64,000 bases of DNA from an uncultured Leptospirales bacterium. Its GTDB lineage: Bacteria > Spirochaetota > UBA4802 > JAFGDQ01. Location: positions 4,972 to 68,971 of the forward strand of contig CAZVDF010000012.1 of NCBI GenBank assembly GCA_964626055.1, given 5' to 3'. A program made the position numbers and the translations under genes. This document shows, in pieces, positions 5,837-27,466 of this stretch (position 1 is the first letter of the stretch; every line of letters begins with the position of its first letter). The notes beneath the pieces are model-generated. The model searched no databases, was not told the DNA's origin, and was given only the letters and a program-made list of their open reading frames with translations.

Positions 5837-5886
5837 TCCGGCGATCAGGACAAAAACAACACACTTGCAAAAGGAGAAAAATTTAT

Positions 5887-6943: not shown

Positions 6944-6964
6944 TTCAATTATATTTTAAAATAT

Positions 6965-7076
6965 AATTTACTCAAGTTGACTGACTTCTTTTATTGATAT
7001 AGTGAACAATAGCGATAAAATGATAAAATTTTATTGCAGATGTTTATACTTTATTTAAAAGAAGTCAGCCAGGTTA
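6965..7076. repeat. Inverted-repeat pair built on the TTACTCAAGTTGACTGAC motif (left arm 6965-6992, right arm ~7058-7076), directly upstream of modB
   Basis: AATTTACTCAAGTTGACTGACTTCTTTT versus AAAAGAAGTCAGCCAGGTT. The same motif forms the outer arms of the 8921-9120 element, and a partial copy lies at 31128-31150 upstream of fliG. It contains a TTGACT -35-like hexamer. Confidence 0.35.
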
Positions 7077-7104
7077 AAAAATAAACTCAGTTTAAATTAA
7101 TTAT

Positions 7105-7791: not shown

Positions 7792-7792
7792 T

Positions 7793-8845: not shown

Positions 8846-8920
8846 TCCGAAAATAATATTTTTATTTGCTTTATTCTCTCCTGCGCATTATAATCCGAAC
8901 ATAATCTTTAAAAATAAACA

Positions 8921-9120
8921 AATTATTTACTCAAGTTGACTGACTTTTATCACACTTAATACTATCGATAGAATGATAGATTATGATCAATTTTCCGCAT
9001 CAAATACCCCATCCGTGGACTCTTCGGCGGTCGGCAACATCCATGTTGCCTTAAAATTGATCATAATCTATCATTCTATCGCAAATGTTTATAAAAAAGT
9101 CAGTCAAGATGAGTTATTTA
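8921..9120. repeat. Composite palindromic element: outer arms AAATTATTTACTCAAGTTGACTGACTTTT / AAAAAGTCAGTCAAGATGAGTTATTTA enclosing MITE-like family 1 copy A (8964-9081: TIRs ATCGATAGAATGATAGATTATGATCAATTTT / AAAATTGATCATAATCTATCATTCTATCG, core hairpin GGCAACATCCATGTTGCC)
   Basis: The core 8985-9052 is the reverse complement of 15425-15495 (copy B, opposite orientation). Confidence 0.55.
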
Positions 9121-9132
9121 AAGGAGGCGCAT

Positions 9133-9339
9133 ATGCAATTAAGCGCAAGAAACCAGCTTAAAGGCAAAGTGCTCAGCGTCGATCTCGGGACCATTATGGC
9201 AAAAGTAAAGATCGATATCGGCGGGGGTAACAAAATAACATCACTGATATCCAAAGAAGCTGTCGAAGACCTGAAAATAAAAGCAGGTGACAGCATCACA
9301 GCTATTATTAAAGCTACCGAGGTTATGGTAGGGAAATAA
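9133..9339 (+). CDS. mop: Molbindin: stand-alone TOBE/Mop-domain molybdate-binding protein (~68 aa)
   Basis: RBS AAGGAGG 6 nt upstream of the ATG at 9133. MQLSARNQLKGKV…ITAIIKATEVMVG matches the TOBE/Mop fold pattern. The ORF-track start at 9085 is probably too early. Confidence 0.7.
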   Translation: MQLSARNQLKGKVLSVDLGTIMAKVKIDIGGGNKITSLISKEAVEDLKIKAGDSITAIIKATEVMVGK

Positions 9340-9386: not shown

Positions 9387-9812
9387 TTAAGAATATTTAT
9401 ATAGACTTTCGGTAAAATCTTTCCACGCAGACGCAAATATATAAGATATATCGTTCTCGATAAATTTTACAATGTCGCCAAGCCTCTCTTTCGGGAAATA
9501 AGCCAGCGCGCCCGAATCGAAAGCATATCTTAAAATATTCGGATCGGTAGACTCCGTTGAAAGAACTACCGCGTTAAAATTCCTGACAATAGCGGCTTCA
9601 AGAACGTCAAAGCTGCAAACGTCCGCAATATCCACTATTACAAGGTCATAATATCCGGAATTGACTTTGTCGATCGCAACTTCGTATGAGTCCGCTTTAT
9701 CAAAAAAGCAGCTCGGATATGCATATTTAATTTCCTCTTCCATCACGGATAATATATCCCGGTCATTATCAACCGCCAGTATTCTTCTTCCGTTCAATAT
9801 TGAATCTTTCAT
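9387..9812 (-). CDS. Stand-alone CheY-like response-regulator receiver domain protein
   Basis: 141 aa. Acidic pocket (AVDND) and phospho-acceptor Asp in DLVIVD. No output domain. Mod-box immediately upstream. Confidence 0.65.
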   Translation of the reverse strand: MKDSILNGRRILAVDNDRDILSVMEEEIKYAYPSCFFDKADSYEVAIDKVNSGYYDLVIVDIADVCSFDVLEAAIVRNFNAVVLSTESTDPNILRYAFDSGALAYFPKERLGDIVKFIENDISYIFASAWKDFTESLYKYS

Positions 9813-9885: not shown

Positions 9886-9935
9886 CATAACGTTATGTTA
9901 ATAAAAACATAACGATTATTGATGTCAATAATAAT
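9886..9935 (+). promoter_or_regulatory. Mod-box module copy 2: CCATAACGTTATGTTAATAAAAACATAACG (three half-sites) then TGTCAATAATAATT, upstream of the receiver gene
   Basis: 24-bp palindrome CGTTATGTTAATAAAAACATAACG at 9891-9914 with perfect GTTATG/CATAAC half-sites. Confidence 0.55.
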
Positions 9936-10211: not shown

Positions 10212-11267
10212 TTATACTGGAGGCAGACACTGCAGTATCCTTTCCGCATCCTTATCCGTTATTTTTTTTCCGTAAATATCGGAATAATATGCTTTCATTT
10301 CTTTTATCATGTCGATGTTTTTAAATAATCCGGGATGGAATATCTTTACCATGTATATCATAAGCAGCACGCCTTCATTGCTTGCGTGATCCCATGCGTA
10401 AACGCCCATAGGCATTCGATACACCCTTTTATTCTTAACAGCCCTGAGATTCGCGAACTCCGGGTTTTTCTTTGCAATATCCGTCGAATCAAAATATCCG
10501 CTGAGGAGAATAATATCCGGGTCCCACGAAAGCACCTGTTGCGCGGATGCCTTTGCATGATTATCATCGATCGCTTCCGGCAGAAAGTTGCCCCCGGAAA
10601 CTTCAACGTTCCAGTGCATTACGCTGCCTTTTCCCTGGCTGCCCATCAGGCTGCCGTGCAGGCCGCCGTAATAAACAGAAGGCCTCTTTTTTCTATCTAT
10701 CTTTGATGTTATCGCAAGGATCTGCTTTACTTTTTTATCGAAATACTTATTGTATTTATCCGCTCTTGCTTTTGCGTCCGACCCCAGAAGGTCGCCGAAC
10801 ATCGTCACCTGTCCCTTAAAGTTTTCGATGTAGTCATTTACATTCATTGGTCTTTTTTCGGCTGAGAAAGCGCATACTGTCTTTAAACCGACAGAGCTGT
10901 ATTGTTCGCCTTTTGTCATGCCGGGCGTATAAAGCACGAAATCGATCTTCTCCTTCAGCAGATCCTCAGGTTTAATGCTTTTATTCGCACAGGCCTTTTT
11001 TATTTCCGGGAACAGCCTGTAAGCCCATGGCGATTGTTTTGCCATATGACTTATCCGGTCTCCTTTGCCCAGCGTCATTATTTTCTCCGGGGAAACACAG
11101 TGCATGCACGCGATCTTTTTCGGATCAGCCGGAATTTCGACCTTGTTTCCACACATGTCAGTTATTATTTTATTTTCTCCGGCATAAAGCGGAGAGCCAG
11201 TCCTGCTCATGCCAAAAGAAATGCCTAAAAGCATTATAATTGAATAAATAAGAATTGTTTTTTTCAT
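10212..11267 (-). CDS. Periplasmic substrate-binding protein of a siderophore/cobalamin-type ABC system (FecB/BtuF, Peripla_BP_2 family)
   Basis: Signal peptide. 351 aa. Family pattern: …DPDIILLSGYF…; C-terminal region similar to the PBP at 17672 and the pseudogene fragment at 21898. Confidence 0.75.
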   Translation of the reverse strand: MKKTILIYSIIMLLGISFGMSRTGSPLYAGENKIITDMCGNKVEIPADPKKIACMHCVSPEKIMTLGKGDRISHMAKQSPWAYRLFPEIKKACANKSIKPEDLLKEKIDFVLYTPGMTKGEQYSSVGLKTVCAFSAEKRPMNVNDYIENFKGQVTMFGDLLGSDAKARADKYNKYFDKKVKQILAITSKIDRKKRPSVYYGGLHGSLMGSQGKGSVMHWNVEVSGGNFLPEAIDDNHAKASAQQVLSWDPDIILLSGYFDSTDIAKKNPEFANLRAVKNKRVYRMPMGVYAWDHASNEGVLLMIYMVKIFHPGLFKNIDMIKEMKAYYSDIYGKKITDKDAERILQCLPPV

Positions 11268-11382
11268 TTTATAAAAGCTCCACGTATATTTTCCTGTTCA
11301 TTTATAAAGATATCCGGGTGAGGAAAAATTTATAAAATCATTGTTTTATTATCCCCACCAAGGATAAATTTATATTTTTAAG

Positions 11383-13818
11383 TTATAACTCCGCACTTAA
11401 ACCGAAGAAGAACTGCCTTCCGGGGCCCGGGTTGAACGGGTCAATATCATAATCATCTAAAATATTTCTGCAAAGCACGTAAGCCTCATATTTATCTAAT
11501 ACTTTTTGTGAAATTTTTACATTGAACATTATCGGATCATGCAGCTCGACTTTTTTATAATATGCCGTTGAAAAAGAATTAGACGCCGTAGGATTACTTG
11601 CCATTGCATATCTCACAGCTTTAGCCATATATTCTCCGAATATATTCAGAGAAGTTTTCGTAAAGAAATCGAATCTTAAATCCGCAACAAATTGATGCTG
11701 AGGAACGGAAGTCGTACCATTTGTGCTTGTAGGTATATCGCCTTTATTTATTGCCGAATTAGCGCTGTTTTCCAAATTCTTAAGCCTGAGGTATGTGTAA
11801 GTAAGACTGATATTAAGATCCATTACCCTGTCTATTAAGTCTTTAAGTTTTCCGTTTGCGATTAATTCAACACCCTGATGAGTTTCTCCCTTTGTATTTG
11901 TATAAAGCTTGTTCCCGGTTACATTAGGATCATATATTGTAGCCAGCTTATCCTTAAATTTTGTGTAAAAGTAATCGGTGCGTAAGCTAACTGTCCTTTG
12001 CAACAGGAAAAATTCAGGGCCTATATTTGTATTATATGATTTTTCAGGTTTTAAACCGTCGTCCGTAACTTCCGAAGCCACATTGGCATATTGCGACATG
12101 GTCGGAAGCTTGGTCTTCTGTGAGAAGGAACCGCGCAGCAATAGAAAATTCTTAAGAGGTTCATAAGTGACTCCGACTACAGGATTAAATGAATCCCTCG
12201 TCCCCCATATAGCCGAATCCTCTTTGGCGATGTACTGGTCTTCCATATTAGGATAAAAATATGTTACGCGTCCGGCTGTCCTTGTAACATTTCTTTTCTT
12301 ATAATCCATGAATTTTTGGGCGTCGTAAGATATTCCGGCGCTTATGTTAACCGGCAAACTTAAAGCCGGATTGAGATTAATTTCATCCTCCAGTGCGACC
12401 GTGAGCTGTTCCATGGTCATGCGTTTTGTGTCGAAGTAGTCATAACCGGCTAATGCATATGCTGCGTCAGCGCTGCCTAATCCTGTTCCGACAAATCTTT
12501 TATCAGCCTGTTCCCTTTCAACATGTTTATCCCATCGGAAAAGAATAGAATTATTGAGTTTATTCCAGTTTGCAAGCTTATAAGAGGGAAAAATATTAAA
12601 ACCGGCAGATGTATTTTTCCAATTGGAATGATCGCCTCCCCAGCTTGTTACGGGCGTGGTCTCATCGGCGTCTATATAACCATCAAGAACTTCATTATTA
12701 TAAGTATAAAATACATTTCCTTTTAAAGAAAAATCTTCTTTTTCATAATTTAAATAAGGTGCCGCAGTTATTGAATATACGTCCCGCCAGTTAAATGCAG
12801 TTGCGCTCAATTTAAAGGTATTTGAAGAAGCTGAGTTCGACCATGCGCCGTTAGATGTCTCTTCAGTATTAGTCAGTGAATTGCTGTATCTCTTTGATTC
12901 ACTCTGAGTATAATTTGCCGTAATACCTGTTTCAAGGCCTTTAAAAAAAGAATATCCGGTTTTTCCTGAAATATTATATTTAAACATTTCCTGATGAGGC
13001 CATTCGCCGGTATCATTTAAATATTTATCGAGCGCGTACTGGGAGGCTGCAGAAGAATCCATTGTGTATCCCAGGGATGGATATAACTTATTGAACCATT
13101 TTAAACGTTCCGATTTATCCAGCTTTTTGGAGACTTCAAAAGAAGCTTCTTTTGAGACATTGGCTGTCAGCCAATAATAGAAATCATTTAAAGCCATTCC
13201 CTGGGCTGCATTAATAGTATAATCCCCATTAATACCATACTCGATACCTCCTTTTGCGTATAAATCCGTAGGCCTCTTTGAAATTATATTTATTGATCCG
13301 ACCGTCCCCAGACTTCCATATAGGGCGGAAGAGGTACCGCGATTAATAATGATTTCCGAAGCATCCATTACAGGGATTTTTGAAATATCGACATTTGCCT
13401 CATAAACATCGGCTATCGGAATACCGTCGACCAGCAGGGCGACATAAGGCATTTCAAATCCTCTCAGGTAAAAACGTTTATGACCTTTTCCATGTTGAAA
13501 TGTAATAAAACCCGGAACTAATTTCAGTGAATCGCTAAGATCTCTGTCACCATGCGCTTTAATATCCTCCGCTGTCAATATTGAAGTAGTGGTCGCGTTT
13601 TCGATATTTGCGATCCTTTTCTGTTTTACCACGATCTCGCCAATGGTAAACGGCTCGGTTTTTTGTTTTTCGGCTTTCGTCGAATCTGTTTTTTTCTCTT
13701 CTGTCTGTATTTGCGCAGGCTGATCCTGTACTGCCTGTGCATCCAGATTCATTACTGAAATTGACAGAAGAAATAAAGAACTCAATAAAAATGCTGAAAA
13801 TCTCTTCATAATCAACAA
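11383..13818 (-). CDS. TonB-dependent outer-membrane receptor (TBDR1)
   Basis: 811 aa. Signal peptide. TonB-box-like EPFTIGEIVV near the N-terminus. Plug then a long beta-barrel with amphipathic strands. Mod-box directly upstream. Confidence 0.8.
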   Translation of the reverse strand: MLIMKRFSAFLLSSLFLLSISVMNLDAQAVQDQPAQIQTEEKKTDSTKAEKQKTEPFTIGEIVVKQKRIANIENATTTSILTAEDIKAHGDRDLSDSLKLVPGFITFQHGKGHKRFYLRGFEMPYVALLVDGIPIADVYEANVDISKIPVMDASEIIINRGTSSALYGSLGTVGSINIISKRPTDLYAKGGIEYGINGDYTINAAQGMALNDFYYWLTANVSKEASFEVSKKLDKSERLKWFNKLYPSLGYTMDSSAASQYALDKYLNDTGEWPHQEMFKYNISGKTGYSFFKGLETGITANYTQSESKRYSNSLTNTEETSNGAWSNSASSNTFKLSATAFNWRDVYSITAAPYLNYEKEDFSLKGNVFYTYNNEVLDGYIDADETTPVTSWGGDHSNWKNTSAGFNIFPSYKLANWNKLNNSILFRWDKHVEREQADKRFVGTGLGSADAAYALAGYDYFDTKRMTMEQLTVALEDEINLNPALSLPVNISAGISYDAQKFMDYKKRNVTRTAGRVTYFYPNMEDQYIAKEDSAIWGTRDSFNPVVGVTYEPLKNFLLLRGSFSQKTKLPTMSQYANVASEVTDDGLKPEKSYNTNIGPEFFLLQRTVSLRTDYFYTKFKDKLATIYDPNVTGNKLYTNTKGETHQGVELIANGKLKDLIDRVMDLNISLTYTYLRLKNLENSANSAINKGDIPTSTNGTTSVPQHQFVADLRFDFFTKTSLNIFGEYMAKAVRYAMASNPTASNSFSTAYYKKVELHDPIMFNVKISQKVLDKYEAYVLCRNILDDYDIDPFNPGPGRQFFFGLSAEL

Positions 13819-13843
13819 ACCTCCCTAAATGTTAGTAATCATT

Positions 13844-13890
13844 CGATATGTCCAAAAAAACATAGCGTTTATATATGTCAATATATATTT
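13844..13890 (+). promoter_or_regulatory. Mod-box module copy 3: CGATATGTCCAAAAAAACATAGCG then TGTCAATATATATTTT, 26 bp upstream of the TBDR1 start
   Basis: Matches the module consensus (2 mismatches in half-sites). Confidence 0.55.
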
Positions 13891-15332: not shown

Positions 15333-15394
15333 AATTTATTACCTCCTTATTAAAATAATAGCTTATCCGATATATTTTTATATAATGGATAAAC

Positions 15395-15522
15395 ATTAAT
15401 GATAGAATGATCAGATTTAATTAATTTTAAGGCAACATGGATGTTGCCGACCGCCGAAGAGTCCATGGATGGGATATTTGAGGCGGAAAATTGATTAGAT
15501 CTGATCATTCTATCAACAGTGT
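15395..15522. repeat. MITE-like palindromic element, family 1, copy B, inserted between exbB and exbD (TIRs CATTAATGATAGAATGATCAGAT / ATCTGATCATTCTATCAACAGTG; core hairpin GGCAACATGGATGTTGCC)
   Basis: The core is the reverse complement of the core at 8985-9052. Confidence 0.6.
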
Positions 15523-15552
15523 TAAAAAATTAATGTAATAAAAGTTAGTATA

Positions 15553-16233: not shown

Positions 16234-17568
16234 TTAAATAATGGGGTGCTCCTGCCGCCAATCCAGAGGCAGAACTTTTATTGTATCCCCGGCTTTTACC
16301 GCGGAACCTGCCGGAATGATAGCGAGCGAGTTTGCGGCCGCCATTGAAGCTATCATGCCCAGTCTGTCGCCAAGTCCAAGTATTACCCGGTATTCGCCCT
16401 TAACTTTTTCCAGGCGTGAATACTTTACAAATGCCATGCCCATTCTTTGAGGCGTCGAATCCATGGCCGTTGCGTCCACCGCAGGATGTCCTGTTTCCGC
16501 GATACCTCTCATTTTAAGAAGAGCGGGCCTTACAAGAGTCTCGAAATTGATTATACAGCCCGCAGGCGGGCCTGCAAGGGAAAAGACCGGGATTGCTTTT
16601 TTCCCGCCATCCCGGGAAAAATTACTGATTACGCCGAACGCTACCGCCGCTCCGGGGCCCATTTTAATTTTGGAAAAAATTACTTTACCAAGTTTCCCAA
16701 CTACAAGCCTTACCAGGTCGTAATCGCCCTTGGACACTCCGCCGCTTGTGATCACGACATCCGCCGTTACCCCGGTCGGGATTTTCGATAAAATAGCGTC
16801 TTCTTTATCCCGTGCGATACCCAGTATCCTTGGTATGCCTCCGTAGTGCGAGACAAGAGAAGAGATCGTAGCGGTATTGGAATTATAAGTTTTACCGCGT
16901 GACAACGGCCTGCCGGGTTTGATAAGTTCGTCCCCCGTGGCTATTATGGCAACAACCGGACGACGCACTACTTTAATCCAGGCCTTTCCGATGGACGCAA
17001 GCGCGGAGATCTGTGTCGGGCCGATAACCGTTCCTTTCTGCACAATAAGGGCGCCTTTTTTTACATTGCTTCCTGCAGGACGAATGCTGTCCCCGGGATT
17101 CGCTTTCACATAAATCTTTACGTATGAGGGCTTATTTCTGTTGGGCCCGTTTTTATTACCGGGCTCGTCGGTATCCTCAAAACGCACCACGCAATCCGCT
17201 CCTTCCGGGACTACCGAACCGGTCATGATACGAATGGCCGTCCCGGGAGTGACTTCAGTCCGGATGAGGCGCCCTGCCCGCGCCGTAGCCGCTATTCTCA
17301 ATACTGCTGGATTCTGCGCGGAGGCATCTCCGATATCTTCCGACCTCACCGCATAGCCGTCCGGGCCGGAAATGGAAGCCTGGGGCAGATCGAAATTGGA
17401 ATAAATATTTTCCGCGAGCACCTGGCCTGCGGATTTGACAATCGGCCTCTCCTCTTCTCCTATGACGAATGTATTCTTTAAAACAATTTCCAGCGCGTCT
17501 TCATAATTTATGGCGGTCTTTTCTTTACCCTTCCGAATTGTTTTAACGACATCCCGTGATTTTGTCAT
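16234..17568 (-). CDS. moeA: Molybdopterin molybdotransferase MoeA (Moco biosynthesis, Mo/W insertion)
   Basis: 444 aa. MoeA N/linker domains, MoCF_biosynth domain with GGVSKGDYD, MoeA C-terminal domain. RBS GGAGG. Confidence 0.85.
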   Translation of the reverse strand: MTKSRDVVKTIRKGKEKTAINYEDALEIVLKNTFVIGEEERPIVKSAGQVLAENIYSNFDLPQASISGPDGYAVRSEDIGDASAQNPAVLRIAATARAGRLIRTEVTPGTAIRIMTGSVVPEGADCVVRFEDTDEPGNKNGPNRNKPSYVKIYVKANPGDSIRPAGSNVKKGALIVQKGTVIGPTQISALASIGKAWIKVVRRPVVAIIATGDELIKPGRPLSRGKTYNSNTATISSLVSHYGGIPRILGIARDKEDAILSKIPTGVTADVVITSGGVSKGDYDLVRLVVGKLGKVIFSKIKMGPGAAVAFGVISNFSRDGGKKAIPVFSLAGPPAGCIINFETLVRPALLKMRGIAETGHPAVDATAMDSTPQRMGMAFVKYSRLEKVKGEYRVILGLGDRLGMIASMAAANSLAIIPAGSAVKAGDTIKVLPLDWRQEHPII

Positions 17569-17590: not shown

Positions 17591-17638
17591 CGTTATGTCA
17601 AAAAAAACATAACCTGGATGCTTGTCAAGGTATTTTTA
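17591..17638 (+). promoter_or_regulatory. Mod-box module copy 4 (best consensus): CGTTATGTCAAAAAAAACATAAC then CTTGTCAAGGTATTTTTAAA, 23 bp upstream of the moeA start
   Basis: Perfect inverted half-sites GTTATG/CATAAC. Resembles the E. coli ModE operator architecture (from memory: CGTTATATT…TACATAACG). Confidence 0.6.
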
Positions 17639-17671: not shown

Positions 17672-18724
17672 TTATTCTATTCCGCCCGCAAGAATAGTCT
17701 TAATATCGCTATCGGAAAGTTTATAGTCAAAAAAACGCCGGTAAAAAGACCGTACCTCATCTTCAATGCTGATATGTCTGAATCTATCCGGATAAAACAT
17801 CTTTGCTGCCCATAAAACGGTTAATGCCTGTTCGACTGTTCTCTGCCCCCATGAATGAGCCCCCATCGGAATAGAATATACCTTCTTATTTATTACTGCA
17901 TGCGTTCCTGAAAGCCTTTTATCTTTATATATTTTTGATATCTCCGACGGTGAAGCGACTATCATAATATCCGGATTCCAGATTAGCACTTGCTCATGTG
18001 AAAAAGACACTTTCCCTGTTCTTTTAATTCCAGCAGTCACACTTATTCCTCCCGCTTCCTTGATCCACCAGTCAGCGATGAGTAGCGGCGTTGTTAAAGT
18101 ATCCGGGCTAAAATACAGCACCACGGGCATCTCATTTTTCGAAATTCCGCTTAAACGATTCCTGATATTTTTCATCGATACTTCAAAATATAATAAATAC
18201 TCTTTCGTCCTTATCATACGATCCAGCAGGTTTCCCAAAATTTTCATATTCGATAAAATTTCCGAAGAGTCTCTCCATTCTATAAAAACAACCGGCATCC
18301 TGTAACGTTCCAGCATATTAACCATAAACATGTCCATGGTAATAACCACATCCGGATTCAACTTAAACAAAACTTCCATATTGAGATCGCGACTCTGCCC
18401 CTGGATCATCGGCTGTTTTGCCAGATGAGGCGCAATAGCAGTCTGCATATTGTATCTATTCGATTTTGCAAATAATGGGAGACCGTTAACAATTTTTTTT
18501 CCTTCACCGAGCGCAAATAGATAGCTATTAATTACAGGGACTGAACCTACGGTTGCGATCCGGGAGATTTTATACGGTACAATGACTTTTCGTCCCGCCA
18601 TATCTATGATGGATTTACTGTGCGGGATTTCTTCCGTAATCAATTCATTTGCCGATAATCCATTGTGCCACAGGCTGCATATGCATGTAAGCGTAAACAG
18701 CAATTTTAAAAAAACAGCTTTCAT
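17672..18724 (-). CDS. Periplasmic substrate-binding protein, FecB/BtuF (Peripla_BP_2) family, second copy
   Basis: Start refined to MKAVFLKLLFTLTCICSLW (signal peptide). C-terminal …IPMGAHSWGQRTVEQALTVLWAAKMFYPDRF…; the ORF-track N-terminal extension to 18820 is unlikely. Confidence 0.75.
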   Translation of the reverse strand: MKAVFLKLLFTLTCICSLWHNGLSANELITEEIPHSKSIIDMAGRKVIVPYKISRIATVGSVPVINSYLFALGEGKKIVNGLPLFAKSNRYNMQTAIAPHLAKQPMIQGQSRDLNMEVLFKLNPDVVITMDMFMVNMLERYRMPVVFIEWRDSSEILSNMKILGNLLDRMIRTKEYLLYFEVSMKNIRNRLSGISKNEMPVVLYFSPDTLTTPLLIADWWIKEAGGISVTAGIKRTGKVSFSHEQVLIWNPDIMIVASPSEISKIYKDKRLSGTHAVINKKVYSIPMGAHSWGQRTVEQALTVLWAAKMFYPDRFRHISIEDEVRSFYRRFFDYKLSDSDIKTILAGGIE

Positions 18725-18950
18725 GTATTTATCCCATATACTCTTTATAATGCATGGCAGAGACGGGTTTATTATGAAATAAAACCATCGCTTTTGGCTG
18801 TGGTCCACCGGTCTTTTCAACGGTGGAAATACGGGTTATGCCCGTATTCTTTTCATAACAAACGACCAAAATTGTCATCTTGAAAGAAATGTATTTTAAT
18901 AATGCTTTTAATAGGGGCTGTCTTAAAACAAAGCCTGTTTAATATGTAAT

Positions 18951-19198: not shown

Positions 19199-21544
19199 TT
19201 AAACTTTTCCTGAAACAGTGAATATAACGGTTAATGGAGCAGCTGGAGCGTATGTGCCGCTGCCGTCGTATTGATATTCAGTCCAGTTGATAGTTCCTAC
19301 ATATTTTCTGTTGAAAAGATTCGTAACAGATATGCCTGCCGTAAAATCCTTGATCCCGAACAAAGAATCTTTTTTATACGCAATATTCAGATCCGCAGTA
19401 ATATAGCTTGGAACCCATTGATTATTTTCCATATTGCCATATCTGAGATCAACGTATCTCGCTATCGGCGATACTGATATATCCCATATCTTGTATTCAA
19501 GCCCCGCTGTTGCTGACCATTTCGGGCAGTCCGGCACCTGGTTGCCTTTTGCGTGTACAACATTGCTGGATGATGTTTTTACGTCATCTGAAAAGGTATA
19601 GTTGTCATACGCGCCTGAAGAAAAGATTGTGAAGTTTTTAGCCGGTGATACACCTGCCGTGAGTTCTGCGCCGTAAGATCGCGCTTTTGCGGAGCTCTCA
19701 AAATAATAGACGCCGGTACCGATGGTCGGGTCATAGATTTTAACTTGTTTATGACGATACATGGCATAAAAAACGGAAGGCTCGACATACCAACTTTCTT
19801 TGTTATATCTCATGCCTAAATCGAAGTTGTCTACGATTTCAAGTCTCAGCTTTCTCCATAGATCCTGGAAAGTAATACCGGCAGCATTAAATTGGCTCTC
19901 AAATGCGTAGTATGTTGCCGGAACAGATCCCCAGTTCTGACGGCCGTATCCGCGCGCGTAATTTGCGCGTACGACTGCGTCGCTGCCGAAGGAGTAGCTG
20001 ACACCCGCGTTCGGGAGCCATTCACGGAATGTCTTCCCGTCGCATATCATACCTCCTCTAATTGATGGATTCTGATCCCATACGTCGTCGCCGTTCGCAT
20101 CTGCCAGATCGCGGCCATCGTAATATTTGTAAGAAGGTTCACGATAGATAAGATAACGTACTCCGCCGGTTAGCATTAAATTACCGATATTGCTTTCGAG
20201 ATTCACAAAAGGGCTGTTGCTTTTATGATCTGTAAATTTAGCGAGGTTATTCCAGCCTGCGAATGTCAGTGATCCGTTGTTTTGAATTCTATAAGCTTTT
20301 TGATTGCTTGGGGGGGGCGGCGGCTGCATTGATTGATACCAGTGTCCAAGGCTGACGCTATGGCCTTTAAAAGTATGATCATAGCTCAATACTCCCCCGT
20401 ATGTATCATGTTTTTGATACCAATAGGTTACTCCGGGTCGATTAAGATCTGCAGCTCTTACGTTGGATAGCTTGCTGGTCCCGGATATTGATAAACCGTC
20501 TTCCCGTATGTAATAAGGTTTCAAAAACAGTTTACCGTTATCAAAAACAGATAATACGGCTTTTCCGAAAACAGCCTGTTCCGTATATCTCTGCTTATTG
20601 TAATCTTTATAAGCCCAATCCTGTGCCGAGTAAGTCTTTTTATCATTATAGCTATATTTGTAGTTGTCGGAATCTGAAATATTTTTTGCTTGTTCATATG
20701 TTAGATTTCTGTAGTTATGCCCATTGTCCCTGCTCCATATTCCATATGCTTCGATATAGAGCCTGCTTAATATAGTCTGTGTTAAGCCTATTTCTGCGTT
20801 CTGACGCTGCTGAAAACCATCGCCGCGCCATTGATTCGCGTAAGTATAAGAACCGGAAGCGAAAATGCTGGTACCCCACGGCATTTTACCGGAATCAACC
20901 CTAGCATAAGTTTTGGTGAAATCGTAAGTGCCGACGGATTGTTTTACCTGTGTGGAGAATGTGTCGGACGGCTTCAGCATAATCATGTTTATAACTCCTC
21001 CGGCATTTGAAAATCCGAATCCTTTGTTTGCCGGCACAGCTCCGCTGTAAAGCGTAGTGCTTTCTATGTTTTCCAGATCGATAATATCGCCCTGTGCTCC
21101 GAAATAATGACCTCCCTGAATCGGTACGCTGTCAACGTTTCGGCATAGATGATAGGAATTTTTCCCTCTGATATTGACAGCCTGGCCTTTATCCAAACCA
21201 TATGCATCCGGGCTTTGTATATTGACTGATGGCAGAGTTTGTAGCGGCATTAACGAATTTGTCTGACTTGCCCCGCCAAGTCGTTCGATGCCTTTTTTAT
21301 TCACTGTTCTTTCCTGATATGGCTCCTTTCCTTTTCTTTCGAAAAAATTTTCGCGTTTCCCTTTTACGACGATCTCGGCTGAAAGGGGCACTTCGTTTCC
21401 GCTTTTCTCTTTTTCAACATCCGCTTCTTTTTTATCGACGTCTTTAGATGAATCCAGGGCATTGACGTCATTAAAGGCTATAAAGCAGAATAGCAACGAT
21501 AAAAAAAGTATTGTTTTACTTAATGGATATTGCTTGCATTTCAT
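19199..21544 (-). CDS. TonB-dependent outer-membrane receptor (TBDR2), paralogue of TBDR1
   Basis: 781 aa. Signal peptide. TonB-box-like AEIVVKGKR. Plug plus barrel architecture. Mod-box upstream. Confidence 0.7.
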   Translation of the reverse strand: MKCKQYPLSKTILFLSLLFCFIAFNDVNALDSSKDVDKKEADVEKEKSGNEVPLSAEIVVKGKRENFFERKGKEPYQERTVNKKGIERLGGASQTNSLMPLQTLPSVNIQSPDAYGLDKGQAVNIRGKNSYHLCRNVDSVPIQGGHYFGAQGDIIDLENIESTTLYSGAVPANKGFGFSNAGGVINMIMLKPSDTFSTQVKQSVGTYDFTKTYARVDSGKMPWGTSIFASGSYTYANQWRGDGFQQRQNAEIGLTQTILSRLYIEAYGIWSRDNGHNYRNLTYEQAKNISDSDNYKYSYNDKKTYSAQDWAYKDYNKQRYTEQAVFGKAVLSVFDNGKLFLKPYYIREDGLSISGTSKLSNVRAADLNRPGVTYWYQKHDTYGGVLSYDHTFKGHSVSLGHWYQSMQPPPPPSNQKAYRIQNNGSLTFAGWNNLAKFTDHKSNSPFVNLESNIGNLMLTGGVRYLIYREPSYKYYDGRDLADANGDDVWDQNPSIRGGMICDGKTFREWLPNAGVSYSFGSDAVVRANYARGYGRQNWGSVPATYYAFESQFNAAGITFQDLWRKLRLEIVDNFDLGMRYNKESWYVEPSVFYAMYRHKQVKIYDPTIGTGVYYFESSAKARSYGAELTAGVSPAKNFTIFSSGAYDNYTFSDDVKTSSSNVVHAKGNQVPDCPKWSATAGLEYKIWDISVSPIARYVDLRYGNMENNQWVPSYITADLNIAYKKDSLFGIKDFTAGISVTNLFNRKYVGTINWTEYQYDGSGTYAPAAPLTVIFTVSGKV

Positions 21545-21744
21545 TGTAAAAACCTCCTGAAAAATTAAATGATGTATTTATTTAATTATTTTTTTGTGAT
21601 ATCCGGACGAGTAATGGCATCCGGAATATTTTTTTGGGGGGAATTGATTAGGATGTTATCTGTTTCCCTTACTCAATACTTTATACTTATCCTTTCATTA
21701 TCAATAAGCAGCCTCCTTTTTGTACATGTTATCCAAAAAATATT

Positions 21745-21790
21745 CGCTATGTCTAAAAAAACATAACGTATATTCGTGTCAATAATTATT
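21745..21790 (+). promoter_or_regulatory. Mod-box module copy 5: CGCTATGTCTAAAAAAACATAACG then TGTCAATAATTATTTATAT, upstream of TBDR2
   Basis: Matches the module consensus. Confidence 0.55.
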
Positions 21791-21897
21791 TATATATTTT
21801 AACTAATTTATTATAGAGTATTATTTTGATGACCCAGGATACGGAGGTTGCATATGTATTAAAATTAATTATGAACCGGCCCTATATAGGTCAAACA

Positions 21898-22105
21898 TCA
21901 GATATCCTCGCTCAATATCTCCAAAACTTCATTCTCGGACATTTGATAACGGAAGAAGTGTTTATAAAAATACTGCATCTCTTTGATCAGATTTAAATCT
22001 GTAAACTTATCGGGGTGAAGTATTTTTGCTGTACGAAGCACCATAAGAGGCTGCTCCGCGGTCCTGCTCGCCCATGAATGAGCCGCTGTGGAGCGGTAAA
22101 TATTT
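21898..22105 (-). pseudogene. C-terminal remnant (~68 codons) of a FecB-type periplasmic binding protein gene, without an N-terminal part
   Basis: Hand translation gives …IREKIQLNIYRSTAAHSWASRTAEQPLMVLRTAKILHPDKFTDLNLIKEMQYFYKHFFRYQMSENEVLEILSEDI*. This aligns residue-for-residue with the C-terminus of PBP2 (…INKKVYSIPMGAHSWGQRTVEQALTVLWAAKMFYPDRFRHISIEDEVRSFYRRFFDYKLSDSDIKTIL…). The frame runs into the 3' end of the 22129 gene in a different frame. Confidence 0.5.
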
Positions 22106-22128
22106 AACTGTATTTTTCGCGGATTATC

Positions 22129-23091
22129 CTATTTCGCGTTCCTGAAAATATCCGCAAGGTTTTTCTTTAACCGGTGAATGTCGTTATTCCTTATGAAATC
22201 CCATCCGACCCATTTAAACCCGGCTCCTTCAGGCAACCTGTTGTCGACATCTATGTGCTGGCTTGGGAATCCCATTCCCGCAGCCAGTTCCCCGAAATCT
22301 TTTCCGGTTATATATAAAGCTAAAACCTCCGCCCTTTTGAGCCCGATTTTTTTAACAAGCATGTATACCGGTTCAAGTATGGCGCCGTCTTCAGGCCAGA
22401 TAAGCTCCATCCCGTCATTCGTTGAGTCTTTCAATGCAAAATGATAGGGTATTGCATACACGGCCGGTTTGTCTTTTTTGCCTGCCATGTCGTTCACAAT
22501 TTTCGAATACCCTTCCACTGCTATAACATTACGGGCCAGCTTTTTTATTCCGTCTTCTCCGAAATATTTGAATATTGTAAATAACACTGCGTCATTCGCG
22601 ATGCCGTCTTTCCCGCTGACTGCGATCTTTTTTGTGTATTTATCATCAAGGATATCCGTCCATCCGGCAGGCGCAGGCAGCTTCCCCAATTCTCTCCTGT
22701 CCGCCAGGAATACATAAGGGAAGGAAGAAACAAGCCTGTAACACCCTATTTTATCGATATATCCGTCATTTTGAAAATTTTCATTCATCCGCTCATCGGC
22801 GAATCCCGCGAAATTCTCCGTATTTGCGAATTTTTTTATGAATTCGGATTTCATAAAATCTCCGAATCCCATTGAAATGATTACATCAGGCAGCATTTCC
22901 ATGCTTTTAATGTCAGTAAAATTATCGTATTTCGCTCTGTCCTCTGAAAAAGAAGGCAAGACAACCACTAGCTCCTCTCCCGTCTTCAATTTATGCTCTT
23001 CCAGCAAAATGTTCAGTCGTGCCAGCAGCGGTCTTTCCATGGGGCACGGAGCAAATGCAATCATATTTATTTCCCTGTTATCAACGATCAT
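22129..23091 (-). CDS. Substrate-binding-protein-like (type-2 PBP fold?) protein lacking a signal peptide; function unknown
   Basis: 320 aa. No hydrophobic N-terminus. 12-nt gap after the ATPase gene, so no room for a leader. Weak resemblance to Fe3+/thiamine-type solute-binding proteins. Low certainty. Confidence 0.35.
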   Translation of the reverse strand: MIVDNREINMIAFAPCPMERPLLARLNILLEEHKLKTGEELVVVLPSFSEDRAKYDNFTDIKSMEMLPDVIISMGFGDFMKSEFIKKFANTENFAGFADERMNENFQNDGYIDKIGCYRLVSSFPYVFLADRRELGKLPAPAGWTDILDDKYTKKIAVSGKDGIANDAVLFTIFKYFGEDGIKKLARNVIAVEGYSKIVNDMAGKKDKPAVYAIPYHFALKDSTNDGMELIWPEDGAILEPVYMLVKKIGLKRAEVLALYITGKDFGELAAGMGFPSQHIDVDNRLPEGAGFKWVGWDFIRNNDIHRLKKNLADIFRNAK

Positions 23092-23103
23092 GATGTTATC
23101 CTC

Positions 23104-23937
23104 CTAAATATCATTCTCCTTAAAATTTTTCTTATTATTTTTTCCTGAAATCCCGCATACGGACTTAGGTATGCATACCCTCAGAGAATCGTTCAACTTC
23201 AATACATTCACGCTTGCGTTATAAAGGTCGGATAGGCTCTCACTGTTAATCACGTCGTCGCTTTTGCCGTCGGCCGCTATGACGCCGTTTTTAATCATGA
23301 TCGCGCGATCGGCTATCCAGAGCGCATGCTCCGGGGAATGCGTCGATTTAATGAATGTATAGCCTTCCTTCGACAGCTTGACTATTTCTTCGAGCAGCTT
23401 TAGCTGATTCCCATAATCGAGTCCGCTTGCGGGTTCGTCCATAATGACTGTTTTTGCTCCCTGTGCGAGTGCCCTTGCGATTATTGTAAGCTGTCTTTCA
23501 CCGCCGCTGATTTCAGTGTATGGCCTTTCCGCAAGATGCAATATTGACAGCCTTTTCATGGCTTCATGCGCGATTCGCACATCGTCTTTAGTGTATTTAT
23601 AAAAAAAATTTTTATGCGGGATCCTGCCCATAAGAACGACATCAATAACACTGTAAGGGAAAACCGTTTTATGAATCTGCGGGACATAAGCGATTTTTCG
23701 CGCAAGCTCTTTGATGCCGATGTCGCTGATATTTTTTCCGTTAACATATATGTTGCCTCTGGCCGGGTTAAGGAATCTAAGCATAATCCTGATCAGCGTT
23801 GTTTTGCCGCTGCCATTCGGGCCGAGAATAGTTACGATTTCTCCCTCAGTAACATTAAAATTAATTTGCTCGAGAATAATTCTATTTGTGTATCCGAATG
23901 AAATATCGCTTACACTGATATGCCGCTTTAGCTCCAT
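23104..23937 (-). CDS. ABC transporter ATP-binding protein, FepC/FecE type
   Basis: GPNGSGKTT, SGGERQ, IMDEP motifs; 277 aa; overlaps the permease gene. Confidence 0.85.
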   Translation of the reverse strand: MELKRHISVSDISFGYTNRIILEQINFNVTEGEIVTILGPNGSGKTTLIRIMLRFLNPARGNIYVNGKNISDIGIKELARKIAYVPQIHKTVFPYSVIDVVLMGRIPHKNFFYKYTKDDVRIAHEAMKRLSILHLAERPYTEISGGERQLTIIARALAQGAKTVIMDEPASGLDYGNQLKLLEEIVKLSKEGYTFIKSTHSPEHALWIADRAIMIKNGVIAADGKSDDVINSESLSDLYNASVNVLKLNDSLRVCIPKSVCGISGKNNKKNFKENDI

Positions 23938-24947
23938 CCCTTCCTCGCCTTTCTTAATATAAGCACAAAGAACGGTATGCCTATAATAGATGTGATTATT
24001 CCGATTGGTATCTCGACATCAAAAAGAAGCCGTGAAAAATTGTCGACTATGATAAGATAGGAAGCCCCGATAAGAGCGCTTGCGGGGATTAATACTTTGT
24101 TGTCCGGTCCTATTAACATCCTGGCGATATGCGGAATGATAAGCCCTACCCAGCCTATCATTCCAGCCATAACAACCGTCATTGCGCTTATTACTGTCGA
24201 GATCAAAATAAGCAGCATTCGAATTTTGCCGACAGGAACTCCGAGAGCCTGCGCTTCATCATCTCCAAGGCTCAATGCGTTTATGTAACCGGAAAGAAGG
24301 ATGATAATGATTATCCCGGTAGTTTGAGTTACAGCAGAAAAAAAAGCCGTATGTTTGTCGCAAAATGATAGACTCCCCATGAGCCACTGGGTTATGGCCG
24401 GGAGCTGGTTATATGGATCTGCGACATATTTCATGATCGAAAGCATCGCTGTAAAAAATGCGCCGCTTATTACGCCTCCAAGTATTAAAAGAAGAACAGA
24501 ATTTCCCCTGTACATCTTTGCGATCCCGACTGAGATCATGACTGCCGCGAAACCGAAACTGAATGTAAGCACCTGCACCGTAAACCAGCTTTTTGCAGTA
24601 ATCATTCCCAGAGCGGCGCCAAAGGAAGCACCTGCGAGAACACCCAGAATGGACGGGGAGACAAGCGGATTAACGAATATAGCCTGGTACGTTGCCCCTG
24701 AAACAGCCAGAGAGGCTCCTATTACAAGACCCGCCACAATCCGAGGCATCCTTATTTCAATTAAAATATTATTCAGAAGCTGAAGCCTGCCGGCATCCAT
24801 ATCGCATACGTTAAACAGTTTGTTTAAAAAAAAACAGACTGTGTCTCTGACAGGGACCGGGTACTTTCCCATTGTAAGTGAAACAACCACTGTACAGACC
24901 AGTATTAAACCAAGCAGGATGAATAATTTTTTCTTGTGAAATATCAT
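23928..24947 (-). CDS. FecCD/BtuC-family ABC permease
   Basis: 339 aa, ~9-10 TM helices, conserved FecCD core (…RIVAGLVIGASLAVSGATYQAIFVNPLVSPSILGV…). Confidence 0.85.
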   Translation of the reverse strand: MIFHKKKLFILLGLILVCTVVVSLTMGKYPVPVRDTVCFFLNKLFNVCDMDAGRLQLLNNILIEIRMPRIVAGLVIGASLAVSGATYQAIFVNPLVSPSILGVLAGASFGAALGMITAKSWFTVQVLTFSFGFAAVMISVGIAKMYRGNSVLLLILGGVISGAFFTAMLSIMKYVADPYNQLPAITQWLMGSLSFCDKHTAFFSAVTQTTGIIIIILLSGYINALSLGDDEAQALGVPVGKIRMLLILISTVISAMTVVMAGMIGWVGLIIPHIARMLIGPDNKVLIPASALIGASYLIIVDNFSRLLFDVEIPIGIITSIIGIPFFVLILRKARKGWS

Positions 24948-25267
24948 ATGGAATTATTTATCTTTTAAATTTCTTCTTTATTATTTGCCTTAAATCCCGC
25001 CTTTCTCTGCTGAATGACAGCAAACACTACTCAAAAAAAATCAGCCCTGATAATCCGATTAATTTTTTATTTAAAAGTTAACAGAGAAAGATACTTTTTA
25101 AATATCTTCCCGCTTACTTGATCTTCCGCAATTCGGTTACAGTAACAGTTATTGAATTTACATTATTAATATATGGAACAACATATTACTTGTTACCTTG
25201 TGTTTGCATTTCGCACAATACCTGTTATAAAAGTTATAATTATTTTCTAAAACTATTATAAGTTGCT

Positions 25268-26137
25268 TTACCGTTTGTCCATAACAGGCAGTTTATTCCG
25301 GCTGATCACTACCCGCTCTGCCGATTTGCCGTAAAAGTGATAACCGGAACCGGCTTCCATAAGCGTGTCCAGAAGCGCGTCCGGATTTGTTACCATAATA
25401 CCGCCGATTTTATTTACTCCACGCCTGAAAAAAGCTTCGGGGAGCATGCTGGCGGTAGGCCATACCAGTATAACTTCCGCTTCAGGGCGCGCAAGTTTCA
25501 GTATATCCTGCAGCGTATCGTTGATCAGCGTAGTGCCAGTAATAATGAGAAAATCCGACTTACTTATGCATTCATTCGCTTTTTCCGGAGGACAATAGTA
25601 TTGGAGCTCATTGGCTTTGAGAGTACGCGTATCCTTCTCCAGGATATGAAACGGACGCCCCCGTGTTTTAAGCAGTCTGATATACGGTATAAGCGCGCCT
25701 ATCACTGTAACATCCGCGTCATCCGGAATAATACTGTTTTCCACAGGGTCTGCATTGTATATAATAAAATATGCTTCGGGAGATACCTTTTTCCAGTATG
25801 TCTCTGAAAGCGCGTTTAAAACCGCGATTCCCAGCGCTGCCTGCAAAGGACTTTCCTTTCTCAGATTCTCAATATATTCGGAAACCGGACGCTCTATCAA
25901 TTTTCCGCACTCCGGCATTGCCCGAAGTGAACTCGGGCAGCAGACGGCCTCAGGTATTTCCTTTACAGGCGTAAAACATATTCCGCCCTCTCCGTTGGAA
26001 AGTTTAACGCCGGAAAAAAATAATCCAATTACCGCCCTCTCAACTTTAATCGAATCCATTTCCGGCCCCAGTACAGTCCGCAGATGGTCCGCTGTCTCCA
26101 TCAGGATCTCTCGCTTTAAATTTTGTTTTAACTCCAA
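25268..26137 (-). CDS. DUF4213/DUF364-type protein (Rossmann-like 'putative heavy-metal chelation' domain family)
   Basis: 289 aa. Domain-family resemblance recalled from memory, not searched. First gene of an operon with FecCD/FepC. Mod-box 37 bp upstream. Confidence 0.45.
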   Translation of the reverse strand: MELKQNLKREILMETADHLRTVLGPEMDSIKVERAVIGLFFSGVKLSNGEGGICFTPVKEIPEAVCCPSSLRAMPECGKLIERPVSEYIENLRKESPLQAALGIAVLNALSETYWKKVSPEAYFIIYNADPVENSIIPDDADVTVIGALIPYIRLLKTRGRPFHILEKDTRTLKANELQYYCPPEKANECISKSDFLIITGTTLINDTLQDILKLARPEAEVILVWPTASMLPEAFFRRGVNKIGGIMVTNPDALLDTLMEAGSGYHFYGKSAERVVISRNKLPVMDKR

Positions 26138-26173
26138 AATAGCAACCTCCGGCTTTTTTATTAAAATGCACTG

Positions 26174-26221
26174 CGATATGTCAAAAAAAACATAACATAG
26201 CTGCCTGTCAAGGGTATTTTT
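26174..26221 (+). promoter_or_regulatory. Mod-box module copy 6: CGATATGTCAAAAAAAACATAACA then CTGTCAAGGGTATTTTT, upstream of the DUF364 operon
   Basis: Matches the module consensus. Confidence 0.6.
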
Positions 26222-26464
26222 ATAGTATTAAATTTTAATTGAAAATTTATCCGGCAGGAAGAATATATGGCAAAAAAATGGGCGCACCTTGCCGGATGCA
26301 CCCATAATATCAATGGTTTTGAGAATATACCTGAAATTTACGCACGGCCTTTTTTGGGGGGGGAAGGCCGGTTATAAATCCAGGCAGGATATAAAGGTAA
26401 CGAATTAACTTTCTAATCTATGCGTTACAATTACGTTAAGTCTAAAAAGATTATCGGAAATATT

Positions 26465-26512
26465 CGTTATGTCAATTTAAACATAACGAATATTTCCTGT
26501 CAAGTATTTATA
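26465..26512 (+). promoter_or_regulatory. Mod-box module copy 7: CGTTATGTCAATTTAAACATAACG then TGTCAAGTATTTATAAT; no adjacent minus-strand gene; nearest plus-strand gene is the ModE-like regulator 600 bp away
   Basis: Perfect half-sites. Confidence 0.6.
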
Positions 26513-26546
26513 ATATTTTTTTAAAAAATTTTTTAGTGTCTACAGA

Positions 26547-26800
26547 AACCATCTCGAAATTACAGATTTAAGTAAGTAATTAGCGATAAAGCGGGATACA
26601 TTACAAAATTTTTGAGGACGCCTTTCAGACCTGATGCAACAGTCTTCGAAAGTATGAAAAGTTAACCAGAAAGTCCGACAGCCACGGATGGCTTAGTGCC
26701 GGGTGCGGGCAGGAAGCCCGTTTGTACCCGGCTGATTCCGCAGAAAATTTTGTAATGTATCCCGCTTTATCGACAAATAAAATATAATTTTGAGGTGAGT
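26547..26800. repeat. MITE-like family 2, long copy (outer IR CATCTCGAAATTA / ATAATTTTGAGGTG; inner IR GCGATAAAGCGGGATACATTACAAAATTTT / AAAATTTTGTAATGTATCCCGCTTTATCG) with an extra ~110-bp GC-rich structured insert
   Basis: Inverted orientation relative to copies 6747 and 41340. The insert 26660-26745 forms long stems (CCGGGTGCGGGCAGGAAGCCCGTTTGTACCCGG). Confidence 0.55.
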
Positions 26801-27115
26801 TCGAATTTAACTATCCCGCATCCCGTAAAATCCGTAATACCGGAATTTTTTTACTTTTGGATTTTTTAATTTAATAAAATTCCCCGGGGCAAGCCTCCGG
26901 TACTAACGTACCGGCCGCCACCTTCGGTGTCGGCGGGGTATTATGTTTCAAGGCGTTATCGATTTGCTCCGCAAATCGATAGGCTTACATCCTCGACGCA
27001 AGCGTCAAGGTATTACGCCTTGAAATAAAGGATTCGCTTACGGCTTTTTAATAAAGCCTTCATCAAAGGCTTTATTAACTTGACAAATTATAAAAATATC
27101 GAGATCTTAGCAATC

Positions 27116-27466
27116 ATGATAAGGAAAAACTTCGACATCGGATATAAAATCTGGCTTGATAAAAACGGCATGGCTTTCGGATTGGGTCCGTACATGCTTT
27201 TAAAAAACATTCAGATCACATCCTCTTTAAGCCAGGCGGCTCTTGAACTGAAAATGTCGTACCGCCAGGCATGGGGGCTTATAAAAGAATGCGAAGAAAG
27301 ACTGGGCTTTGACCTGATCGAGCGCCAGGCAGGCGGCGCATCCGGCGGATACTCCCTCTTGACTCCGGAAGGTGAAAGATTTATTTTCTGGTTTGAAGGC
27401 CTGCACGATGAAATTGCTAAAACAATCGATAAAATATTCAAAAAGAGGCTGGAAAAACTCAGTTAA
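27116..27466 (+). CDS. ModE N-terminal-domain-like winged-helix transcriptional regulator (no TOBE domains)
   Basis: …ITSSLSQAALELKMSYRQAWGLIKECEERLGFDLIERQAGGASGGYSLLTPEGERFIFWF… matches the ModE HTH domain pattern (E. coli …ISQGAKDAGISYKSAWDAINEMNQLSEHILVERATGGKGGGGAVLTRYGQRL…). The ORF-track start at 27080 is a TTG; the ATG at 27116 is preferred. No clear RBS. Confidence 0.6.
   Translation: MIRKNFDIGYKIWLDKNGMAFGLGPYMLLKNIQITSSLSQAALELKMSYRQAWGLIKECEERLGFDLIERQAGGASGGYSLLTPEGERFIFWFEGLHDEIAKTIDKIFKKRLEKLS

Follow-up and report, generated by a model that had tools for sequence, protein, structure and literature searches.

The DNA analysed here, called the window below, is a stretch of 64,000 nucleotides (nt) from an uncultured Leptospirales bacterium (GCA_964626055.1, contig CAZVDF010000012.1). 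We consider an operon on its minus strand that ends with a gene for a binding-protein-like protein and the remnant of a receptor gene. Genes were named by Pfam profile search, and all positions are those of the window. In order of transcription, a DUF4213/DUF364 gene is followed by a FecCD permease gene, an ABC ATPase gene and a gene for a 320-amino-acid (aa) SBP_bac_6 protein, here called SBP6, with the remnant directly behind it.

25268 to 26137, minus strand: DUF4213/DUF364 protein, 289 aa; translation starts at a TTG, preceded at 8 nt by the ribosome-binding site GGAGG (Pfam DUF4213 and DUF364, E 3e-21 and 7e-40)
24948 to 25267, minus strand: AT-rich non-coding gap of 320 nt between the DUF364 gene and the permease gene, with no open reading frame (ORF)
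23928 to 24947, minus strand: type II ABC importer permease, MolB-like, 339 aa (Pfam FecCD, E 6e-79; solved-structure match)
23104 to 23937, minus strand: ABC ATPase, MolC-like, 277 aa (Pfam ABC_tran, E 8e-31; solved-structure match)
22129 to 23091, minus strand: SBP6, predicted cytoplasmic SBP_bac_6-fold protein, 320 aa, with an invariant Cys16-Pro17; TAG stop at 22131-22129 (Pfam SBP_bac_6, E 1.9e-55)
21898 to 22128, minus strand: remnant of a MolA/FecB-type (Peripla_BP_2) gene, 76 codons and the native TGA

The permease and ATPase genes overlap by 10 nt, and a spacer of 12 nt separates the ATPase stop from the SBP6 start. An original prediction, made by a model from the letters alone, had proposed this gene content and order, and the Pfam matches bear it out. 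The 320-aa and 289-aa proteins both matched their Pfam families, and neither reached the cutoff of any NCBIfam model. The 320-nt gap contains weak promoter-like sites at 25196-25168 and 25281-25252. Its folding is not unusual (z-score -1.2), it has no sequence conservation with the equivalent gap in a related locus (L085, see below), and a fragment of a TonB-dependent receptor (TBDR) gene was sought in it and none was found. The gap may be a recombination joint or contain an internal promoter.

SBP6 and the receptor-gene remnant

The absence of a signal peptide from the 320-aa protein, as stated in the original prediction, was confirmed. An upstream in-frame start was sought and no extension is possible, the annotated start being the first one after the preceding stop, which falls inside the ATPase gene. 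The N-terminus (MIVDNREINMIAFAPCP) has no n-region or h-region. The AlphaFold model (predicted local distance difference test, pLDDT, 92; predicted template-modelling score, pTM, 0.91) shows the whole of a class II binding-protein fold. It begins at about residue 8, with the first beta-strand at residues 10-12 and helix 1 from C16, so that no room is left for a signal peptide. The C-terminus is that of the 320-340-aa homologues, and the close homologues end within 2-5 residues of it. Neither an export signal nor a lipobox was found, and the homologues are either leaderless or carry a DUF1858 domain. The Cys16-Pro17 pair is invariant among the homologues; Cys16 was considered as a lipoprotein cysteine and rejected, because no hydrophobic leader precedes it and the cysteine is internal in the DUF1858-fused homologues.

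By Foldseek, the nearest solved folds are FbpA, AfuA, FutA and PotD (template-modelling score, TM, 0.6-0.68), with which SBP6 shares the SBP_bac_6 domain. Unlike these proteins, to which it is only 10-16% identical, SBP6 has no signal peptide and has the invariant Cys-Pro at the start of helix 1, and some of its relatives carry DUF1858. The partner of the FbpA/AfuA/FutA/PotD class is a type I permease (BPD_transp_1), whereas the SBP6 family is partnered by a GTPase and a soluble ATPase, and the permease of the present operon is FecCD, which is type II. Judged by sequence and model, SBP6 is a cytoplasmic protein of full length and neither a decayed nor a substituted receptor. The original prediction had placed both the SBP-like protein and the DUF364 protein in the cytoplasm, and this assignment stands. 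Its further suggestion, that the two might handle the imported ligand there, is plausible and agrees with the genes around them.

The distribution of the family was evaluated across 185,579 species genomes; 111 loci were confirmed, and the best 80 of them, with 91 family copies, were kept (loci are labelled L0xx). Family members were found in Deferribacterales, Clostridia, Negativicutes, Desulfobacterota, Bacteroidales, Fusobacteria, Dehalococcoidales and other taxa. An N-terminal cytoplasmic DUF1858 domain is present in about half of the copies, and about 85% of them lie beside genes for a HypB/CobW-like G3E GTPase and a soluble ABC ATPase, without a permease gene. SBP6, DUF364, the G3E GTPase and the soluble ATPase all scored below the NCBIfam cutoffs, and no NCBIfam model matches SBP6. 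FecCD or Peripla_BP_2 genes also occur in 14 of the 80 loci. Intact Peripla_BP_2 genes coexist with SBP6 in L002, L019, L023, L036, L048, L050 and L055, and in three of these (L019, L023, L055) the intact receptor gene touches the SBP6 gene. ModA is encoded within 8 kb in 10 of the 80 loci, and ModE-type boxes were found in L009 (directly before the SBP6 gene), L019 and L029, with 7 hits against 1 in a shuffle. In a Pfam census of 139 neighbour genes in 20 diverse loci, FecCD, Peripla_BP_2 and S-adenosylmethionine (SAM) methyltransferases each occurred in 5. DUF364 and SBP6 genes are also neighbours in L002, L047 and L084. The family is widespread, uncharacterised, cytoplasmic and conserved, and it is the part of this locus worth following up: it has neither an NCBIfam model nor a solved structure close to it, and a known ligand would annotate many genes.

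Two arrangements within the family may be recorded. In many anaerobic phyla (L004-L083; e.g. L018 7713-10739) there is a conserved three-gene cluster that consists of an SBP_bac_6 gene, with or without DUF1858, a gene for a HypB/CobW-like GTPase of about 230 aa and one for a soluble ABC ATPase of about 340 aa. In L085 (914-4807), two tandem SBP6 paralogues precede the three-gene cluster, and a MolB-like importer lies behind it.

Directly after the TAG stop of SBP6 (22129-22131) the frame remains open for 76 codons, from 22128 to the TGA at 21898-21900. The original prediction had assigned this remnant to a different frame from the 320-aa ORF, but translation from 22128 shows that the two share the same frame. 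Its other statement, that the remnant is the C-terminal fragment of a FecB-type periplasmic binding protein (PBP), was supported by alignment. Similarity is clear over 21901-22086, and the fragment matches the very C-terminal end (residues 320-381) of PBP382, an intact receptor encoded in the window, with 42% identity over 62 aa (pairwise E 1e-17; E 6e-13 by tblastn against the whole window). Identity to a Desulfuromonadaceae PBP is 44-46%. When compared with the C-termini of PBP382 and of the PBP of L019, the remnant is 42-46% identical to them, and those two are 55% identical to each other. No other PBP fragment was found by tblastn of 16 PBPs against the whole window and three non-coding gaps, and a word-based search with the 62-aa remnant core returned no match.

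The fragment resembles only a part of its family, has no start codon at its 5' end and no N-terminal part, and has intact paralogues elsewhere in the window, as a pseudogene fragment would. We read it as the 3' end of a lost third, redundant receptor gene of the MolA type, deleted up to about codon 305. The scar appears to be fairly young rather than old and decayed, because no stop has arisen in 76 codons and identity to its relatives has been kept. Its in-frame position behind the upstream gene has a prior of 1 in 3. By itself the remnant is an ordinary deletion scar, that is, routine gene loss among redundant paralogues. The assembly at this point was checked against a second assembly, of run SRR8925802, which shows no difference for 6856 bp, TAG and remnant included, and may derive from the same reads.

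Importer, receptors and Mo boxes

When compared with solved structures, the permease is closest to MolB of Haemophilus influenzae (HI1471, 2nq2_A; E 1.2e-63, 219 bits), with FhuB (167 bits), HmuU (147 bits) and BtuC (125 bits) as further relatives, and the ATPase is closest to MolC (HI1470, 2nq2_C; 8e-42). In H. influenzae, molybdate/tungstate is imported by MolBC-A, a type II ABC system that molybdate represses (PMC4031551), and its genes adjoin modA and modD (PMC3928620). The two intact Peripla_BP_2 receptors of the window, PBP382 and PBP351, both have MolA (HI_1472, 3psa) among their top 3-4 solved relatives (PBP382 against MolA, E 1e-18), and both have signal peptides; for PBP382 the true start is probably M33 (MKAVFLKLLF...), which would open the signal peptide. 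They are encoded 3.3 and 10.9 kb from the operon, within the same regulon, each behind a TBDR gene.

Homologues of the permease at 65-81% identity are very common in anaerobes, and the nearest named ones are from metagenome-assembled genomes (MAGs) of Spirochaetes. In the closest relatives with readable contigs, the genes run in the order TBDR, FmdE-domain protein, Peripla_BP_2, FecCD, ABC, and the receptor gene is found before the permease gene, not after the ATPase gene. The receptor gene is likewise upstream of the permease gene in H. influenzae molABC (PMC3928620). The statement of the original prediction that the SBP-like gene occupies the place of the PBP gene is thus not supported. Two of the Spirochaetes MAG loci (L086 5848-14337 and L087 400-8889) contain, in this order, genes for a TBDR, an FmdE-domain protein, Peripla_BP_2, FecCD, ABC, a 600-aa radical-SAM enzyme and a methyltransferase, a gene set that hints at a modified or organic ligand.

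The control of the operon by a Mod box, also part of the original prediction, has support from the sequence. The motif CGnTATGT-N8-ACATAnCG occurs in the window at 11 sites with <=3 mismatches, against 2.3 expected, and 0 of 100 shuffles reached 11. The 7 boxes with 0-1 mismatches are all within 9.8-26.5 kb, and the region appears to be part of a molybdenum/tungsten (Mo/W) acquisition island under a ModE-type repressor. Its boxes (listed without strand) and genes are as follows.

26174 to 26197: Mo box overlapping the DUF364-gene promoter, 1 mismatch, with a -35-like TTGACA (26184-26179, minus) inside
21745 to 21768: Mo box before the TBDR781 gene, 0-1 mismatch, with a -35-like TAGACA
17591 to 17614: Mo box before moeA, 0-1 mismatch
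13844 to 13867: Mo box before the TBDR811 gene, 0-1 mismatch
9891 to 9914: Mo box before a CheY-like gene, perfect
27080 to 27466, plus strand: protein of 128 aa that has the N-terminal (DNA-binding) domain of ModE and no Mop domains (Pfam HTH_1; TIGR00637 ModE_repress 1e-17)
19199 to 21544, minus strand: TonB-dependent receptor TBDR781, 781 aa (Pfam)
17672 to 18820, minus strand: intact Peripla_BP_2 receptor PBP382, 382 aa (Pfam), the paralogue in the window closest to the remnant
16234 to 17568, minus strand: MoeA molybdopterin molybdotransferase (Pfam, NCBIfam)
10212 to 13867, minus strand: second module of Mo box, TBDR811 and PBP351
11383 to 13818, minus strand: TonB-dependent receptor TBDR811, 811 aa, within the second module
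10212 to 11267, minus strand: intact Peripla_BP_2 receptor PBP351, with signal peptide, within the second module
4239 to 9339, plus strand: modD, modA, modA, modB, modC (TOBE) and a Mop molbindin, a classical high-affinity molybdate system nearby

The Mop molbindin (about 9133-9339) was assigned by reading the sequence MQLSARNQLKGKV. TonB and ExbB/ExbD are also encoded in the island. At three promoters the -35-like hexamer lies inside the box, which fits repression. The consensus of Escherichia coli ModE is atCGnTATATA-N6-TATATAnCGat (PMC545781), from which the window motif differs at one position per half-site. The island resembles the E. coli ModE/ModABC regulon in its palindromic operator, near CGnTATAT-N8-ATATAnCG, and in containing a ModE N-domain protein, modDABC, mop and moeA. 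Unlike the E. coli regulon, it includes TonB-dependent receptors and a type II importer, and its regulator consists of the DNA-binding domain only (128 aa), with Mop as a separate protein. The ModE N-domain protein is a candidate regulator of the Mo boxes, and the placing of the operon with its DUF364 gene under a ModE-type operator is, as far as sequence goes, well supported. From 22129 to the promoter of TBDR781 no terminator-like site was found, and co-transcription of PBP382 with the operon is therefore possible. In an Rfam search of the whole window at the gathering threshold, the TwoAYGGAY motif was the only match, with no cobalamin or other riboswitch, and a permissive search of 21400-22200 and 26100-27100 gave noise only.

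The first protein of the operon contains both Pfam domains, the enolase-N-like one preceding the Rossmann-like one, and its relatives in the PDB are 3npg and 3l5o. An orthologue at 65% identity is encoded in L084. It shares the two-domain architecture with Dhaf4260 (3L5O), MMP_RS02675 and Orf5, and a neighbourhood of Mo/W/Fe ABC transporters is a further point in common. The occurrence of DUF364 beside transporters for Mo, W, V and Fe was noted in 2010 with the first structure (PMC2954201), and in Methanococcus maripaludis the DUF364 gene (MMP_RS02675) is inside the modABC operon and cofit with nifH. A reaction is known only for Orf5, the methyl-azetidine-carboxylate synthase of a Streptomyces pathway, which is the sole characterised DUF364 enzyme and cyclises methylated SAM to an azetidine amino acid (PMC12930334), whereas the transporter-linked members are without a known activity. 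The substrate of the operon's DUF364 protein is probably a small molecule, SAM-derived or pterin-like, that has a link to metal handling. The chemistry of SAM cyclisation is shared with the synthesis of nicotianamine-type metallophores.

Interpretation and further observations

The best explanation as a whole, which we consider probable, is that of a ModE-regulated operon for a MolBC-type Mo/W importer with two cytoplasmic helpers and the scar of a lost receptor gene. The importer, type II with a BtuCD fold, would transport molybdate/tungstate or a Mo/W chelate. The Mo/W species would cross the outer membrane via the TonB-dependent receptors, be bound by PBP382 or PBP351 in place of the lost receptor, and be moved across the inner membrane by MolBC. 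SBP6 would most likely receive it in the cytoplasm, at or near the transporter exit, and pass it on, perhaps towards MoeA, and the DUF364 protein may work on an associated small molecule. The SBP6 gene would once have been followed by a third receptor gene of the MolA type, which would then have lost everything before about codon 305. Little is known of how cells bring molybdate and tungstate from their transporter into cofactor synthesis. Here one ModE-type operator joins a MolBC-type importer, two TBDR/binding-protein pairs, MoeA and two uncharacterised cytoplasmic proteins, which gives concrete candidates for testing.

Judged by its sequence, the operon would be a new variant of the MolBC-A kind. 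It is like MolBC-A (HI1470/HI1471/HI1472) in the best solved matches of permease and ATPase, in the predicted receptor type, Peripla_BP_2, and in lying near modA and modD, and its ModE-type box may be set beside the Mo-repressed expression of the H. influenzae system. It is unlike MolBC-A in its order (DUF364, permease, ATPase, SBP6), in that its receptor gene is deleted and receptors are encoded elsewhere behind TBDRs, in its two extra cytoplasmic proteins, and in its substrate, which is predicted here from sequence. SBP6 may also be compared with the Mop/ModG molbindins and the G3E metallochaperones (HypB, UreG, CobW) as a cytoplasmic holder or deliverer of Mo/W or metal. This is an analogy only; the folds are unrelated, and a HypB-like GTPase is the usual partner of the SBP6 family.

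Several observations weigh against this explanation. The best solved relatives of PBP382 are two unannotated PBPs from structural genomics, 4ovk and 4pag, and not MolA. TBDRs, radical-SAM enzymes and methyltransferases beside the closest permease homologues suggest a ligand larger than a free oxyanion. SBP6 is here without the usual G3E GTPase and soluble ATPase partners of its family, and the window contains no G3E gene. The Mo box may not directly control the transporter genes, given the 320-nt gap. Synteny was no support either, for in the nearest relatives with DNA, L084 and L003, neither a PBP gene nor a remnant follows the SBP6 gene. The order in L084 is SBP6, 345 nt, DUF364 and TBDR, and that in L003 is different again, which indicates that the cluster is prone to rearrangement and makes the ancestral order a matter of inference.

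A variant of the same explanation is that Mo/W is imported on an organic chelator by way of the TBDRs, the MolA-like PBPs and the type II importer, that the DUF364 protein makes or dismantles this SAM-derived chelator, and that SBP6 receives the chelate. We take it seriously, though we regard it as unlikely. It would account for the Mo boxes at two TonB-dependent receptors, it agrees with the usual cargo of type II importers, which is chelates, and the only characterised DUF364 enzyme does cyclise a SAM derivative (PMC12930334). DUF364, TBDR and probably PBP genes in a row in L084, and homocitrate-synthase-like genes near SBP6 in 3 of the 20 diverse loci, point the same way. However, neither an exporter nor additional biosynthetic genes could be recognised in the island, the cargo of MolBC-A itself is the free oxyanion (PMC4031551), and no TonB-dependent Mo/W receptor was found in the literature searched. 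It is more doubtful still whether the substrate is an iron complex, haem or a corrinoid, with the Mo boxes providing a loose coupling to molybdoenzyme synthesis, although the FecCD/FepC annotation of the transporter suggests such a substrate. The top NCBIfam matches are BtuC and haem and corrinoid ATPases (all below cutoffs), TBDR811 is weakly like BtuB, and CobW-like GTPases, methyltransferases and radical-SAM enzymes lie beside the relatives. Against these stand MolB and MolC as the best solved relatives, a ModE-type box on every transcription unit of the island, the neighbouring modDABC, mop, moeA and ModE-N genes, the FmdE-domain genes in related clusters, and the riboswitch searches, which found none.

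The original prediction saw in the locus the replacement or decay of the periplasmic receptor. The loss of a FecB-type gene is retained from that proposal. The part in which the signal-less SBP-like gene replaced the receptor and does its job, or is itself the decaying receptor, is largely refuted and in our judgement very improbable. The position of the SBP6 gene, after the ATPase gene and directly before the remnant, speaks for it, but SBP6 is of class II and the remnant of class III (Peripla_BP_2), and SBP6 is full length and belongs to a conserved, signal-less cytoplasmic family, some of whose members are fused to DUF1858 and which is partnered by a GTPase and a soluble ATPase. Intact PBPs occur alongside it in at least 7 loci, and intact PBP paralogues are present in the same regulon. 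Least credible of all is that the TAG is no true stop, through a sequencing error, a recent nonsense mutation or programmed read-through, and that a 397-aa fusion of SBP6 and receptor tail is made. The 76 open codons in frame would occur by chance in about 1% of random sequence of this composition (0.94^76), but a young deletion explains the open frame equally, and the in-frame prior is 1 in 3. The close homologues all end at the same position to within 2-5 residues, TAG ends 5 of the 49 long ORFs in the window, and the second assembly has the same base. A recoded or erroneous TAG was rejected on these homologue lengths, the ordinary usage of TAG and the identical second assembly.

Beyond this locus, a broader proposal is that the SBP6 family is the ligand-holding core of an undescribed cytoplasmic machine for trafficking Mo/W (or a metal chelate) that is fed by BtuCD-fold importers, and that the island, with the DUF364 enzyme and the TBDRs, is a complete "molybdophore/tungstophore" uptake-and-delivery pathway in an anaerobe. 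We offer it as a speculation that is rather unlikely to hold in full.

Some further features of the window were recorded. Upstream of the operon, a perfect Mo box at 26465-26488 (minus strand) overlaps a good promoter, TTGACA-18-TAAATT, and about 170 nt downstream is a terminator-like hairpin with a T-run (26305-26272). The segment 26272-26510 (minus), for which no Rfam family match was found, could be a short Mo-regulated transcript or a leader upstream of the operon's own box. It lies in the ORF-free stretch of about 940 bp that separates the operon from the ModE-N gene (26138-27080), an unusually long interval with several GC-rich perfect hairpins, e.g. 26957-26981 and 27048-27078. The two copies of the TwoAYGGAY RNA motif (RF01731), at 15383-15532 (plus strand, 51.3 bits) and 8956-9091 (minus strand, 42.2 bits; gathering score 43), are 88% identical over 139 nt. 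They are located in the exbB-exbD spacer and the modC/mop interval, respectively, each antisense to the flanking genes and both within the Mo-regulated island. The CheY-like protein, a single-domain receiver of 141 aa (9387-9812, minus strand), was assigned by sequence reading, and its perfect Mo box is about 80 nt upstream of the start. At the edge of the window (2-2793) there is, on the minus strand, a second FecCD permease gene, cut by the window edge, with an ABC ATPase gene (568-1356) and a calcineurin-like phosphoesterase gene (1544-2596). A porin gene (2755-3990, plus strand) is divergent from this group, and two Mo-box-like sites (2655-2678 and 2770-2793, 2 mismatches each) lie between the two.

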